This document shows, one piece after another, positions 13,923-63,332 of a DNA stretch of 64,000 nt (positions are counted from its first letter, which is position 1; each line of letters begins with the position of its first letter). This DNA is from Candidatus Helarchaeota archaeon (GTDB taxonomy: Archaea; Asgardarchaeota; Lokiarchaeia; Helarchaeales; RDOG01), in NCBI GenBank assembly GCA_019058315.1, contig JAHPZH010000002.1, forward strand, positions 224,001 to 288,000, read 5' to 3'. The notes below the pieces were generated by a model that had not been told where the DNA came from, searched no databases, and saw only the letters and a program-made list of their open reading frames with translations. Made by a program: the position numbers and the translations under genes.

Positions 13923-15191
13923 TTAATTGTCTCCTCCTGGACTAATTTCAAATATTATTTCATTTATATCTGGACCAATTTCCAATGTTCTTGTCTTTAA
14001 TTCTATCATCTCACTAGGGCGGACAAATTTCTTTTTAAGTTCTTTCAAGATTGTACCATTTGCTTTTAAACTTATTAAAACATCATTTTCTGGTTTTTTT
14101 ACTCGCATAAAGAAAATAAGTGGTTGAGATAATGATTTTCTATTTATGTGTTGAGGAACAATATAACCGATATTACGTCCAGCTTTGGTCTTAACTAATT
14201 CCTTTTTCTCTTTCAGTTTTTGTTTAATATATTTAGCAGCATTATTTCCAGCATTAATAGCCTCTTGTGTGACATTATCAACCAAATCATGAACTTGAAG
14301 CACATTACCACAAGAAAATATTCCCTCTATTGAAGTTTCGAGATTTTCATCAACAATAGCTCCTCCAGTTACAGGATCCAATGCAACTCCAATTTTATTT
14401 GATAATTCATTTTCTGGGATGAGTCCTACAGATAATAATAATGTATCACATTCAATAATTTCTTCAGTACCTGGAATAGGTTTCCAATGCTCATCGACCT
14501 GGGCAATAGTAACAGCTTCAACTCTATTTTCACCGTGAATTTTTGTAACTGTATGTTCTAATAATAATGGAATATCAAAATCTTCTAAGCATTGAACTCT
14601 ATTTCTTACTAAACCATTTGTATAAGGCATAATTTCAACAACTGCCTTAACTTTGGCACCTTCTAAAGTAAGTCTACGTGCCATAATTAAGCCTATGTCT
14701 CCTGATCCTAGAATAACAATTTCTTTTCCTGGCATATATCCTTCAATATTTACAAAACGCTGAGCTAAGCCCGCTGTATAAACACCAGAAGGACGGTAGC
14801 CTGGGATTCGAATTGCTCCTCGAGTTCTTTCACGACAGCCCATGGCCAGTATAATTGCCTTAGGAATTATTTTAAGAACTCCTTCATCTTTATTAAGAGC
14901 GATTATATGTTTATCTTTGGTAATATCAATGACCATAGTGTTTAATTTTACTGGAATATCCAATTCATGGATCTGATTGATATATCGCTGAGCATACTCT
15001 GGACCAGTTAATTCTTCTTTAAATACATGCAATCCGAATCCATTATGAATACATTGAGGTAAAATACCTCCTAATTCAAAATCTCTTTCAATAATTAGTG
15101 GATTTACTCCTGCTTCTTTTGCAGTAACTGCAGCAGCCAACCCTGCGGGGCCACCACCTATAATTGCAAGGTCTACATCAATTTCAATCAT
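13923..15191 (-). CDS. FAD-dependent pyridine nucleotide-disulfide oxidoreductase (G3PDH-associated NADH oxidase type)
   Basis: GGGPAG, GGILPQCIHNGFG, AMGCRER, ILGSGDIG, GNVLQVHDLVD. Confidence 0.88.
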   Translation of the reverse strand: MIEIDVDLAIIGGGPAGLAAAVTAKEAGVNPLIIERDFELGGILPQCIHNGFGLHVFKEELTGPEYAQRYINQIHELDIPVKLNTMVIDITKDKHIIALNKDEGVLKIIPKAIILAMGCRERTRGAIRIPGYRPSGVYTAGLAQRFVNIEGYMPGKEIVILGSGDIGLIMARRLTLEGAKVKAVVEIMPYTNGLVRNRVQCLEDFDIPLLLEHTVTKIHGENRVEAVTIAQVDEHWKPIPGTEEIIECDTLLLSVGLIPENELSNKIGVALDPVTGGAIVDENLETSIEGIFSCGNVLQVHDLVDNVTQEAINAGNNAAKYIKQKLKEKKELVKTKAGRNIGYIVPQHINRKSLSQPLIFFMRVKKPENDVLISLKANGTILKELKKKFVRPSEMIELKTRTLEIGPDINEIIFEISPGGDN

Positions 15192-16642
15192 TTTTTATCC
15201 TCCCATACCGATTTAAACTTAGTTTTACTTACGAATAATTCCGACCCCGGTCCCATCTTTGATACTTTTTCTATAGGAATATCCAATTCTTTGGAGAGGA
15301 TCTTCACTGTTCGAGCAGTACAGAAACCTGCTTGACAACGCCCCATCCCACAACGAGTCCTAAATTTTATCCCATCCAGAGTTGTTGCACCAACTGGTCT
15401 TTTAATTGCATCTATTACCTCAGCTTCAGAAACATGCTCACATCTACAAACTATATTACCGTAATTTTGATCTTTCATTATAAATTCATGCTTCTTTTCA
15501 TTTGGAAAATTAGTAAGGCTTATGGGTCTTTCTCTACGCGGATTAAAAGATTCTTTTTCTAATAATTCTAAGCCAGAATCTCTCAAAATATCAATTACAT
15601 AATCAGCAATTCCTAAAGAAGCAGTTAATCCTGGAGATTGTATTCCTGCTACGTTTATGAACCCTTTTATTTTAGTTTCTTCAATAATAAAATCATTTGT
15701 ATCAGAAACAGCCCTTAAACCAGCAAAATTTGTGATAATTTTTCTTAAATTAATATTAGGAAGAAGTTTTAGACCCCCAGCTATAATTTCTTCTATACCT
15801 TCTGTGGTGGTTGATGTATCTGCTTTATCATCTAAATCAACTGCATTAGGTCCAAAAAACACATGTTTATGTAAAGTTGGAGCAGCTAAAATTCCTTTAC
15901 TTTTTTTTGTGGGTAAAGGAAAGAGAGGACGATTAAGTTTTAATGTTTCCTTATCAAATAGAACATATTCTCCCCTTCTTGGAGTAATTTTAAAATAATC
16001 TAATCCAACCATTTTAGAAATTTTATCCGCATATACTCCTGCTACATTAATAATATAATTAGTATGAAATTCTCCCTCCTTTGTCATTACTTTTTTACTA
16101 GATTCTTTGACTTCTATATTTTCTACTTCTGAATTAAATCTAAATTCTACACCATTCATATTTGCATTTTCAGCTAAAGCAATTGTTAAACCATATGGGG
16201 AAACTATTCCGCCAGTTGACGCATATAACACCCCATTTGCATCATCTGTTAGATTTGGTTCCATTTCTTTAATCTTCTTTTTATCTAAAATTAATTCAGT
16301 TTTTATTCCATTTTTTTCTCCTCTTATTCGTAATTCTTCTAACTGATTTATGCCCGAATCTATTGTTGAGACCACAAAGGTCCCACATCTTCTAAATTCT
16401 ACATTAAGATCTTTGCAAACTTGATCAAATAATGGGTTGCTAATTGTATTAAATTTTGCTTTAAAAGTTCCAGGTTCTGCAGCATAACCAGCATGGACTA
16501 TTCCCGAATTGCCCTTACTTGTCCCAGAACAAACATCCGACGATTTTTCTAGCACTAATGTATTTAAAGAATATTTCGAAATGTTTCTGGCTATTGTGCA
16601 ACCAATCACGCCAGCACCTATTACAATTACATCCCATTTCAA
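15188..16642 (-). CDS. glpA: FAD-dependent glycerol-3-phosphate dehydrogenase-like protein with C-terminal BFD-like [2Fe-2S] domain
   Basis: GAGVIG, TSKGNSGIVHAG, GIQSPGLT, VCRCE...GMGRCQAGFC; glycerol kinase-like gene nearby. Confidence 0.8.
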   Translation of the reverse strand: MKWDVIVIGAGVIGCTIARNISKYSLNTLVLEKSSDVCSGTSKGNSGIVHAGYAAEPGTFKAKFNTISNPLFDQVCKDLNVEFRRCGTFVVSTIDSGINQLEELRIRGEKNGIKTELILDKKKIKEMEPNLTDDANGVLYASTGGIVSPYGLTIALAENANMNGVEFRFNSEVENIEVKESSKKVMTKEGEFHTNYIINVAGVYADKISKMVGLDYFKITPRRGEYVLFDKETLKLNRPLFPLPTKKSKGILAAPTLHKHVFFGPNAVDLDDKADTSTTTEGIEEIIAGGLKLLPNINLRKIITNFAGLRAVSDTNDFIIEETKIKGFINVAGIQSPGLTASLGIADYVIDILRDSGLELLEKESFNPRRERPISLTNFPNEKKHEFIMKDQNYGNIVCRCEHVSEAEVIDAIKRPVGATTLDGIKFRTRCGMGRCQAGFCTARTVKILSKELDIPIEKVSKMGPGSELFVSKTKFKSVWEDKK

Positions 16643-16984
16643 ATTAATTACCTATTTTAAATAATATCTCATTAAATTCAAATCTAATTTAACGGTAAAA
16701 CATTATAATTATTTATTCTTCATATTAAAGGATTTGTAAATGAGATTGGATGTAAAATATATACATAATTAAAAGAAAATGTAAAACTCTGTTCTTCATT
16801 CTAGTTTTATTTTTTAAAGAAAAAATAATCCAAAATCCAATTTCTAACTTTTTTATTAAAAAATATCTTAATTTGGTAAAACTATATTCATATTACATTT
16901 TTAGATCATTTTATTTATTTGTAGAAGTATTATAATCCAAGATAAAAAAAATCATTAAAATATGGATAATTACTGGTGAATATT

Positions 16985-17398
16985 ATGGATTTCCAAGTAA
17001 CATCTTTAGCAGGTGAAGCTATTTCGGAAATGTCATCTGGTTTGATACAAAAGAATTTAACAGAACACCCAGTGGTTTCAATCTATTTTAAAGGTACAAC
17101 TTCTGCCATATGAGGTACAGGAGGTTCGGATACCGTTCCAGCATATCTTAAATTAACAATTGACGTTGTGTCCCAAGAAGATCTTGAAAAAGAAGAGGAA
17201 AAATTCACACGTCAAGGTGATTACCAAGAAGTTCCAATTTTTACTCAAGATTTAGCTCTGAATTACCTTGTTGATCCTACGATAATTGATGCCAAAAAAT
17301 TCTATCACTTCAGCGAATTATTCATTCCAAACGCACCGGTCTTAATCGAGAATACTTTTTGGAAAGTAGATGAAGTTAAAAAAGGCGGTGGCTGTTAG
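16985..17398 (+). CDS. Candidate selenoprotein, 137 aa, Sec at codon 43 (TGA 17111-17113), C-terminal GGGC; possibly HesB/IscA-like fold
   Basis: ATG at 16985 after a GGTGA SD; 42 sense codons, TGA, then the same frame continues into track ORF 17168-17398; SECIS-like hairpin right after the TAG. Confidence 0.75.
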
Positions 17399-17399
17399 A

Positions 17400-17471
17400 A
17401 AGGTCGATGGATGAAATTTTTTTGTAAATATTAGAAAAAAATTGACACAGTTTATGCAAACTGCCGACCTT
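17400..17471 (+). promoter_or_regulatory. Eukaryote-type SECIS element in 3' UTR
   Basis: AUGA(17411-14)-N11-AAA(17426-28)...GA(17444-45); stem AAUUUUUUU/AAAAAAAUU; basal helix AAGGUCG/CGACCUU. Confidence 0.75.
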
Positions 17472-17629
17472 AACTTACTTTTCTTTTAATTAAAATTTTA
17501 TTTCTAAATTTTATTAACTATTATACCCAACTTAGTAAAAAAGCAAAATAATAGAATATTTGAATTTTATTTTGTGAAATACTAATTTGAAAATCTAATT
17601 TTAATTTATAATTTAAGGAATAAACAAAA

Positions 17630-19168
17630 ATGGCTCAAGATCTCGTATGTGTTATTGATGCTGGAACAACTGGTTTAAGAACAATGATTTTTGATAGTAA
17701 TGGAAACGAAATTGATAGAGCTTATCAAGAATACAAAAGTTATTTTCCAAAACCTGCTTGGGTAGAACAAGATGCAAATGATTGGTGGCAAGCGGTTTGT
17801 AACACATCAAATAAGGTGCTAAAAAAAATCAATACCTCTGATATTGTTGGAATAAGCGTTACAAACCAAAGAGAGACAATTGTTCCAGTAGATGAAGCCG
17901 GAAATCCTTTAAGAAAAGCTTTGGTTTGGCAAGATCGTCGAACTATACCTGAGTGTAATATTATTCGAGAAGTTATAGGGGAAGATGAAATATATAGGAT
18001 TACTGGATTAACAATAGACCCATATTTTTCATCATCCAAGATTATTCATATAAAAAATCAACAACCAGATATCTTTTCAAAGACCTCCAAATTCCTTCTT
18101 GTCCATGATTATATTGAAATGAAATTAAGCGGAAAATTTGTGACTGATTGGTCAAATGCCTCTAGGACTATGTTATTTGATATTGAAAAGCACGAATGGA
18201 GCAAAAAAATTTGTGATAAATTAGAGATACCTATTGAAAAGATGCCCCAAACGTATCCTTCTGGGGAGATCATTGGCGAAATCACAAAAATCGCTGCTAA
18301 ACAAACGGGATTCATAGAAGGAACTCCAATAATAAGCGGTGGGGGAGATCAACAATTAGGTGCATTAGGTTTAGGTGTTATTAAATCTGGACAAATATCT
18401 TGTACAACTGGAACAGGGACGTTTATATTAGCCTTTTTAAATCAACCACTACGTGATCCTCAAAAAAGAGTTCTTTGTAGCTGTCATGCAGTCCCTAATA
18501 CATGGGTTATGGAAGCCAGCATATTCACTACTGGTTCGGTTTATAGATGGTTTCGTGATCAATTCAGTCAATATGAAAAAGACCTTGCTAAACGACAAAA
18601 TAAAGATCCTTATGAACTTCTAAATGAAGAAGCTATAAAGTCTCCCGTAGGTTCTAATGGAATCATTTTAATACCTCATTTTGCAGGAGCTGGGGCACCA
18701 TATTGGAATCCTTATAGCCGTGGTATTATTGCAGGGCTTGCCCTTGGACATACTAGAAATGATCTAATAAGAGCCATTATGGAAAGTATATGCTTTGAAA
18801 TTAGAAAAAATATTGATGTTATGAGACAATTAAATATTCAGGTAAATGAGATCCGGTTAACTGGAGGAATGACTAGGAGCAATACATTTAATGAAATACA
18901 AGCCGATGTTTACGGGATTCCTGTATTACATAGCAAGACTGAAGAAGCAACTGCACTAGGAGCCGCGATGTTAATTTTAAAGGGGACTAAAATTTATAAG
19001 AACTATGACGAAATCGCAAAAAAAGTAGTTAAAATTAGCGCAACCAAAAAACCTAATAATATAAATCATAAAAAATATTCAAAAATCTTCGAAATATCGA
19101 AAAAAATTTATGAAATATTCCAAACCAATAATTTATACAAGGATTTTTATGATATGGGGGATTATTAA
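17630..19168 (+). CDS. glpK: FGGY-family kinase, glycerol kinase-like
   Basis: DAGTT, TNQRET, WQDRRT, DPYFS, TDWSNASRTMLF, GDQQ, GAGAPYW; next to G3PDH operon. Confidence 0.72.
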   Translation: MAQDLVCVIDAGTTGLRTMIFDSNGNEIDRAYQEYKSYFPKPAWVEQDANDWWQAVCNTSNKVLKKINTSDIVGISVTNQRETIVPVDEAGNPLRKALVWQDRRTIPECNIIREVIGEDEIYRITGLTIDPYFSSSKIIHIKNQQPDIFSKTSKFLLVHDYIEMKLSGKFVTDWSNASRTMLFDIEKHEWSKKICDKLEIPIEKMPQTYPSGEIIGEITKIAAKQTGFIEGTPIISGGGDQQLGALGLGVIKSGQISCTTGTGTFILAFLNQPLRDPQKRVLCSCHAVPNTWVMEASIFTTGSVYRWFRDQFSQYEKDLAKRQNKDPYELLNEEAIKSPVGSNGIILIPHFAGAGAPYWNPYSRGIIAGLALGHTRNDLIRAIMESICFEIRKNIDVMRQLNIQVNEIRLTGGMTRSNTFNEIQADVYGIPVLHSKTEEATALGAAMLILKGTKIYKNYDEIAKKVVKISATKKPNNINHKKYSKIFEISKKIYEIFQTNNLYKDFYDMGDY

Positions 19169-19198: not shown

Positions 19199-20149
19199 TT
19201 GAGCCAAAAATGGTTTAAGATTCTGTTTTTAGGTCTTGATAATGCCGGGAAGACTTCATTTCTACTTTCATTGGAGAATAAATATAGTCATTTACATTCT
19301 TTAAGACCAACTAAAGGACTTTATAAGTACGAATATAAAATACTCGGTTTTGAAATCAATCTCCTCGATTTTGGAGGACAAAAGATATATAGAGAGGAGT
19401 TTTTTAAAAAACCAGAAAATTATATTGGAACTGACTTACTATTCTTCGTTATTGACATTCAAGATAGAAGAAGATTTGCAGAAAATGGGGAATTTTTTGA
19501 AAAATTACTTGATGAATTTGAAACTAATGATGTTAAACCTAATATAATTATCTGTTTTCATAAGCTTGATCCCGACCTTATGACAGATCCCGAATCTTAT
19601 ATTCATGATAATATTCAAATCGCAGAAAGATTATTTAAATCTAAAAGTAACGGACGGGAATTGGAATTTTTTCAAACAACTATTTACGATTATTCAAGTT
19701 TGGCTCGAGCTTTTTCTTCAGGGTTATTGAAAATCATTAAAGATTTTAAAAAAGTAACCGAAACTATCTTTGCTGATTTTATGAACAAAACTAATGCAAA
19801 TGGTGTCTGTCTTCTTAGTGAAAATGCTCTTATTTTATCAGATCTCTATGATAAAAAGTCTGAAGCCCAAGAAATTATCGAAATTATTGGTACAAATATG
19901 GCCCAAATGTCTCAAAAACTAATAGAATATAATCATGGGATACCAGAATCTATTGAAATAAAAATGAAAGGGTGGTCTTTTTTTAGAACTTTTGAACTCG
20001 AGGATAAGGACGTAAAAGAGGGGGGTATGAAGAGATTTTACCTAATAATTTATTCAGAGAATCCTAAAAATTTTGATAAAATAAATGAATTATTAACTAA
20101 TTTTACTCTAACAGTTGCAAATACTTTGAAAAATTTTCTAAAGGAGTAA
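19199..20149 (+). CDS. Rag/Gtr-like small GTPase with C-terminal roadblock/longin-like domain
   Basis: GLDNAGKTS, RPT, DFGGQ, HKLD (HKxD-type G4); C-terminal alpha/beta domain. Confidence 0.75.
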   Translation: MSQKWFKILFLGLDNAGKTSFLLSLENKYSHLHSLRPTKGLYKYEYKILGFEINLLDFGGQKIYREEFFKKPENYIGTDLLFFVIDIQDRRRFAENGEFFEKLLDEFETNDVKPNIIICFHKLDPDLMTDPESYIHDNIQIAERLFKSKSNGRELEFFQTTIYDYSSLARAFSSGLLKIIKDFKKVTETIFADFMNKTNANGVCLLSENALILSDLYDKKSEAQEIIEIIGTNMAQMSQKLIEYNHGIPESIEIKMKGWSFFRTFELEDKDVKEGGMKRFYLIIYSENPKNFDKINELLTNFTLTVANTLKNFLKE

Positions 20150-62866: not shown

Positions 62867-62963
62867 AAAATTTTATTAATAAAATAAGTATTAAAAAGAA
62901 AAATGAAAAGTTATTATTTAATTACTAAAGATGAAGGCTTTATGCCAGATAAAGGTAAGAAAT

Positions 62964-63332
62964 ATGTCAAAATTTATACGTTTTGAAACCCCCAAAGAAC
63001 TGCAAGATGAAGCTTTAAAAGCTTTAGAAATGGCAAGAGACACTGGAAAAGTTAAAAAAGGAACGAATGAAGCTACAAAAGCAATTGAAAGAGGAATTGC
63101 AAAATTAGTGGTAATTGCAAGCGATGTAGAACCTGCAGAAGTTGTTATGCATCTACCTCTTCTTTGTAACGAGAAAAAAGTCCCATATTTATATGTTCCA
63201 GGTAAGAGACAATTAGGTAGAGCAATAGGAATAGAGGTTCCTGCAGCAGCAGCAGCTATTACTCAACCAGGTGAAGCAGAAAAAATGATTGCAAGTATTA
63301 AGGATAAACTTAATACACTAGGTTTGAAGTAA
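62964..63332 (+). CDS. rpl7ae: Ribosomal protein L7Ae (start reassigned to ATG 62964)
   Basis: KKGTNEATKAIERG, DVEP.EV..HLP.LC.EK; SD-like AAGGT upstream of 62964. Confidence 0.95.
   Translation: MSKFIRFETPKELQDEALKALEMARDTGKVKKGTNEATKAIERGIAKLVVIASDVEPAEVVMHLPLLCNEKKVPYLYVPGKRQLGRAIGIEVPAAAAAITQPGEAEKMIASIKDKLNTLGLK

Follow-up and report, generated by a model that had tools for sequence, protein, structure and literature searches.

Within the window, the 64,000-nucleotide (nt) stretch of Candidatus Helarchaeota DNA analysed here, a small gene with an in-frame UGA codon is followed, 1 nt 3′ of its TAG stop, by an RNA element (17400–17471) that joins the core of a eukaryote-like SECIS to a complete additional hairpin. 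An earlier note on this DNA took the element for a structural SECIS variant, with the side hairpin as its unusual feature. The locus raises the question of whether the hairpin belongs to the SECIS at all and, if it does, whether it marks one gene or a whole family of elements. In our assessment, with a probability of about 80%, the element is the SECIS of the gene directly upstream and a member of the lokiSECIS family, built as a kink turn (k-turn) on a three-way junction with the hairpin as its third arm. It would direct the reading of the UGA at 17111–17113 as selenocysteine.

RNAfold returns the same three-way junction as the minimum free energy (MFE) structure and as the centroid structure of the element (Table 1). 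The energy of −17.7 kcal/mol, compared with −9.25 ± 2.2 kcal/mol for dinucleotide shuffles (z = −3.81), is matched by none of 200 such shuffles. Helix I, the AUGA/GA core, the upper helix, the AAA and the side hairpin all lie where the earlier note had read them from the sequence, with AUGA at 17411–17414 and AAA at 17426–17428, 11 nt past it. Its picture of an internal loop carrying a side hairpin is right about the hairpin but not about the open loop: U17408–A17447 and G17409–C17446 pair, forming a C helix of 2 bp and leaving a bulge of 3 nt. Above this bulge, G17413/A17414 and G17444/A17445 are expected, by analogy with known k-turns and SECIS elements, to form tandem sheared G·A/A·G pairs. 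The T-rich tract that follows the element is possibly an archaeal termination signal; a terminator search found no bacterial-type terminator.

Table 1 Coordinates of the host gene, the parts of the element and two further selenocysteine loci. Positions are those of the window unless a contig is named.
Feature	Position	Strand	Remarks
Selenoprotein gene	16985–17398	+	137 codons; single open frame when TGA is read as U
Helix I, 5′ strand AAGGUCG	17400–17406	+	Pairs with 17465–17471; MFE and centroid fold
k-turn C helix, U-G on the 5′ strand	17408–17409	+	Pairs with C17446-A17447; covariation
k-turn bulge G-A-U, 3 nt	17410–17412	+	AUGA begins with its A and U; sequence
G-A of AUGA	17413–17414	+	Opposite G17444-A17445
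Helix II and apical loop	17415–17443	+	9 bp, 17415–17423 with 17435–17443
Apical loop GUAAAUAUUAG, 11 nt	17424–17434	+	A at loop positions 3–5, AG at the end
GA on the 3′ side of the core; C-A (C helix, 3′ strand)	17444–17445, 17446–17447	+	
Helix III (third arm), CAGUUU/AAACUG, loop AUGC (17454–17457)	17448–17463	+	
Helix I, 3′ strand CGACCUU	17465–17471	+	Fold and helix I survey
T-rich tract UUUUCUUUU	17479–17487	+	Directly 3′ of the element; sequence only
Locus L010	G000:C3:786878–786946	+	G000 is the window's genome
Locus L013	G000:C2:185966–186040	−	As above

When TGA is translated as selenocysteine, the in-frame UGA becomes residue 43 (Sec43, U43) of the host protein, and the frame ends at the TAG at 17396–17398. 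Metagenomic relatives of the protein, with 67–76% identity, align on either side of the UGA, and three have W at the selenocysteine position, indicating that a TGA there was read through by gene callers. In L096, the one ortholog whose DNA was compared (68% identity), a TGA stands at the same codon as Sec43, and the UGA and the SECIS element are both conserved. Another relative, P0005, has E-D-K-G-K in place of the U-G-T-G-G around the selenocysteine position and may be a form with neither selenocysteine nor cysteine at that site. A search of 161 genomes of the class and of the genome contigs found no orthologs of the host protein.

Pfam gives the host protein a sub-threshold match to Fe-S_biosyn (IscA/HesB; E = 0.12). 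The same genome carries two other small genes with an in-frame UGA, at the L010 and L013 loci, with the motifs SIGUGG and FSUC; a three-armed lokiSECIS lies 3′ of each. These genes also have weak Fe-S_biosyn matches (E = 0.0047 and 0.084), and one of the two shows faint similarity to the host protein. Because weak matches to this family recur in the host gene and in the two other selenocysteine genes, we apply the label IscA/HesB-like to the host gene, though with low confidence. The AlphaFold model of its product (pLDDT 47) was too poor for a structure search. Within window 13923–19168, the gene has two divergently oriented FAD oxidoreductase genes on one side and a gene for an FGGY-family carbohydrate kinase on the other, and one of the oxidoreductases has DAO and BFD-like [2Fe-2S] domains; from their domains, these neighbours look like a glycerol-utilisation cluster. 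At window 19199–20149 (+) lies a gene for a Gtr1/RagA- and Arf-like small GTPase (Pfam E = 6e-19), which we take to be a typical Asgard ‘eukaryotic signature’ protein. The genome as a whole (5.8 Mb, approximately 30% G+C) contains a tRNA-Sec. An AIRS-domain gene adjoining this tRNA gene was considered as selD and is not a selenocysteine-containing selD.

Eukaryote-like SECIS elements have been known in Lokiarchaeota since 2016 (PMC4989117). The lokiSECIS (Mariotti 2016, PMC4989117), also named the type I eSECIS-like structure of Asgard archaea (Huang et al. 2024, PMC11227280; 2026 review, PMC13188914), has AUGA directly before a stem of 9 bp and GA (or AA) directly after it; its apical loop of 11 nt has adenines early on and ends in G, usually as AG, and the whole lies close 3′ of the stop codon. 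The window element has AUGA before and GA after a 9-bp stem with an 11-nt loop, and it lies close 3′ of a UGA-containing gene in a genome with tRNA-Sec; its loop starts GUAAA, whereas the published loop starts AAAAA. By geometry and location, the element is predicted to be a genuine SECIS of the lokiSECIS family, of eukaryote-like type. The same geometry, with its 11-nt spacing, bears out the eukaryote-type AUGA…AA…GA k-turn core that had been proposed from the sequence. As this is the published lokiSECIS geometry, the eukaryote-like core was already known (PMC4989117), and the notion of a structural variant peculiar to this gene falls away.

Relatives of the element were collected with a covariance model of the core only (R1) and a strict pattern scan, the latter used in place of a loose regular-expression scan of the genome that gave 472 mostly spurious matches. 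The strict scan and R1 find six core elements in the genome, all of them 0–18 nt 3′ of open reading frames with an in-frame UGA. HdrA is among these genes, and it and others thus use the same element as the host gene, not an unrelated one. One lokiSECIS (L009/L014; G000:C2:355614–355654, −) has upstream of it a gene in which two UGA codons stand side by side, reading G-C-U-U, near the C-terminal third. Another (L012/L016; G000:C10:42120–42160, −) lies directly 3′ of a short, hydrophobic-looking open reading frame of approximately 95 codons that contains H-V-U-P-L-C and a second in-frame UGA.

Outside this genome, R1 matches 84 of 85 genomes of the related family f4. It has no match in the other Asgard families sampled, where SECIS geometry differs, so that third arms in those families are not addressed by our survey. 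Nor does it match G001–G006, the nearest relatives of the window's genome, which come from its own family and order and stand closer to it than f4; within the order, the distribution of selenocysteine use or of this SECIS geometry may be patchy. A second covariance model (R2), built from 22 elements that all come from other genomes, recovers the window element with 46.6 bits (E = 1.2e-8). Every aligned element keeps AUGA and GA unchanged, and helix II between them has double-sided changes in all 9 pairs, with 98.4% of cells paired in an alignment guided by the covariance model (CM).

R1 describes the core only, and the sequence 3′ of its matches is therefore an independent test of the third arm. 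Our sample comprised 72 distinct lokiSECIS elements found with this model, and a hairpin was counted if it scored at least 4 and started 0–6 nt after the GA. Such a hairpin directly follows the GA in 97% of the elements; at the same loci, random controls anchored on a GA have one in 29% of cases, and shuffles in 27%. Over the 28 nt that follow the GA, the MFE averages −5.0 kcal/mol in the elements versus −1.3 kcal/mol in the controls. The stems themselves are diverse, with 56 different helix III sequences among the 72 elements. MAFFT alone misaligned the third arm, and we used a gapless, same-register subset of 22 elements together with the CM-guided alignment. Double-sided changes occur in five of the six stem pairs in the former and in all six in the latter (90.9% of cells paired in 71 distinct rows, leaving out the window row, whose third arm was cut by the CM), and many of the sampled elements are orthologous, so that these counts overstate the number of independent events. 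Sliding the partner strand, as a control, lowers helix III pairing to 42–47%. In the ortholog L096, the AUGC loop of helix III is kept while the stem shows a compensatory change from A-U to G-C. Judged by these sequence comparisons, the side hairpin is no local oddity but forms a conserved third arm of the lokiSECIS; it sits on essentially all the lokiSECIS elements sampled, in this genome and in f4 (84 of 85 genomes).

The loop of helix III carries a motif of its own. The dinucleotide GC occurs within it in 64 of the 72 elements, where composition alone would give 7.2 and no run among 2,000 simulations exceeded 18. Loops without GC mostly have GU, and a U often precedes, giving a UGY motif. 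Loop length ranges from 3 to 9 nt and the position of GC within the loop varies, which argues against one rigid tertiary contact; inspection by eye revealed no obvious partner elsewhere in the element that covaries with the C/U of UGY. The conservation of the UGY loop suggests an additional specific contact.

At its base, the third arm meets the C helix. The alignment model treats the C-helix columns as unpaired, so covariation between them is not a product of the fit. Across 71 distinct elements, position −2 (before AUGA) and position +1 (after GA) form G-C in 61, A-U in 7 and U-A in 3, with none unpaired, and position −3 pairs with +2 in 83%, with 29 double changes. A C directly follows the GA in 62 of 72 elements, and the C helix is 1–3 bp long, with a mode of 2. 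At the first base of the bulge (L1), 50 of the 72 elements have A, 20 have G and 2 have U, giving the consensus R-A-U. All four helices, namely I, II, III and the C helix, are conserved and covary around an invariant AUGA/GA core, helix I clearly in about half of the elements. Secondary structure and covariation together provide what defines a simple k-turn of the Kt-7 or box C/D type: a C helix, a 3-nt bulge, and tandem G·A/A·G pairs opening the NC helix, with no unpaired base on the opposite strand. With its C-helix pair, R-A-U bulge and invariant GA/GA, the core reads as a textbook simple k-turn, which suggests that the lokiSECIS core is a canonical simple k-turn placed on a tight three-way junction.

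How closely the hairpin is built into this junction bears on the best-surviving alternative, that it is a separate element travelling with the SECIS, such as a 3′-end, stability or termination hairpin of selenoprotein mRNAs. The hairpin does stand at the 3′ edge of the element, with T-rich sequence next to it. An enclosing helix I, of differing sequence, is present in about half of the 72 elements; in the other half it is weak or undetected and does not clearly enclose the hairpin, so a closed three-way junction is not universal. Helix I nevertheless scores at least 6 in 39% of elements, versus 6% when the 5′ and 3′ flanks are re-partnered, and wherever it is clear the hairpin lies inside it. 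No spacer separates helix III from helix I in 19 of 37 elements, and the hairpin adjoins the C helix with 0 nt between them in 47 of 72, which speaks against an independent passenger. A mere stability hairpin would not need the UGY motif that its loop retains. Transcription termination in archaea uses oligo-T and not hairpins, and no terminator-like site scored. We consider a separate hairpin improbable, and prefer the third arm of a three-way junction.

Among known systems, the window element is like form 1 of the eukaryotic SECIS in its AUGA/GA k-turn-like core, in an AAR 11 nt after AUGA (within the eukaryotic range of 10–13 nt), in its place in the 3′ UTR and in its lower helix I; unlike form 1, it has a helix II of only 9 bp and a whole hairpin on its 3′ side. 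Search tools for eukaryotic-type SECIS gave no matches on lokiSECIS elements (Mariotti 2016, PMC4989117). With the SECIS of Methanococcales and Methanopyrus the element shares its location in the 3′ UTR of an archaeal selenoprotein gene, and the VhuD versions of that SECIS also carry AUGA…GAC (PMC4989117). However, the GAA_A bulge and the three consecutive upper-stem G-C pairs of the methanogen type are both absent from 17400–17471, in agreement with the earlier reading of the element as something other than a methanogen SECIS.

An Rfam search of the element (E ≤ 10) returned no SECIS family, only sub-threshold noise. One such match, to snoR31/Z110/Z27 over 17400–17471 (21.1 bits compared with a gathering score of 45; E = 7.2), together with the resemblance of AUGA to the start of box C, would point to a box C/D-like k-turn small RNA in place of a SECIS. 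This is very unlikely: the match is far below threshold, the sequence reads GGAUGAA where box C reads RUGAUGA, box D (CUGA) is missing ahead of helix I's 3′ strand, as are the C′/D′ boxes, all relatives of the element lie directly 3′ of UGA-containing genes, and the geometry is that of a lokiSECIS. A chance fold in AT-rich sequence, of the kind that puts a hairpin of score at least 4 into 29% of random control windows, can practically be dismissed for a hairpin that is present in 97% of real elements, has 56 distinct stems with compensatory changes where slid controls pair at only 42–47%, and keeps its loop motif.

The main texts of published accounts describe the core, the upper stem and the apical loop, and beyond these an internal loop and a lower stem in generic terms (PMC4989117, PMC11227280, PMC13188914). 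In the main texts of the 2016, 2021 and 2024 papers and of the 2026 review, the third arm, the UGY loop and the G-C pair closing the bulge are not described; the 2016 supplement may draw the arm. The main texts of the Asgard SECIS papers likewise report no conserved nucleotides outside the key regions, and a full-text literature search combining SECIS with ‘three-way junction’ and ‘Asgard’ found nothing. That the side hairpin is missing from published SECIS models, as had been remarked, thus agrees with these main texts, which cover core, stem and loop only. Our study adds the covariation counts for the third arm, the UGY loop statistic, the C-helix pair and the junction spacings. The window element itself is an ordinary member of the lokiSECIS family that serves a gene family unlisted among Asgard selenoproteins, the putative IscA/HesB-like host family being outside the seven Asgard selenoprotein families (Huang 2024, PMC11227280).

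Most likely, we infer, the third arm props a C helix of so few pairs, presents the UGY loop to an Asgard SECIS-binding factor, or does both. K-turns need a C helix. One of 2 bp would not be expected to stand alone, and the three-way junction would here supply the stability that a long helix I gives in eukaryotes: helix III would stack on helix I or on the C helix, stabilising the too-short C helix and fixing the kink. In the k-junction of the TPP riboswitch, a third helix departs from the strand without the bulge and is stacked on the C helix (Wang et al. 2014, PMC4005666). The window element is like that k-junction in having a three-way junction built on a k-turn and a third helix from the non-bulged strand; in TPP the third helix lies directly opposite the bulge, whereas in the lokiSECIS a C helix of 1–3 bp, with a mode of 2, stands between them.

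The UGY loop and the k-turn might further form a joint surface for an Asgard SECIS-binding factor, which could be L7Ae, L30e, EFSec or another protein. The cores of SECIS elements resemble k-turns, and in eukaryotes L7Ae-fold proteins read them. Because the core has the form of a canonical k-turn, an L7Ae-family protein is a plausible candidate binder of the element. The window carries a gene for ribosomal protein L7Ae at 62931–63332 (+; Pfam E = 5e-31), a candidate k-turn binder; L30e is encoded at C10:156062–156328. There are only the usual two L7Ae-family genes in the genome, one of them that in the window, and no SBP2 or SBP2-like extra copy of the family was found there. A more specific proposal, which we hold only tentatively and think somewhat doubtful, is recognition in two parts: an L7Ae-fold protein would bind the k-turn, the UGY loop of the third arm would be the docking site for a SECIS-binding factor or EFSec, and the arm would have been lost in eukaryotes when SBP2 took over.

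Labelled from sub-threshold Pfam matches only, the putative IscA/HesB-like host gene would bring the Asgard selenoproteome a family that is not among the seven published ones. If the k-turn on a three-way junction holds, published models of the Asgard SECIS, by which selenoproteins are discovered in Asgard genomes, could be extended, and their specificity should improve. The model would also name the targets for mutation, namely the closing G-C pair, helix III and its UGY loop, and would give a defined RNA to use as bait in the search for the binding factor. Should recognition in two parts prove true, the third arm would serve as the pull-down bait for the archaeal counterpart of SBP2.
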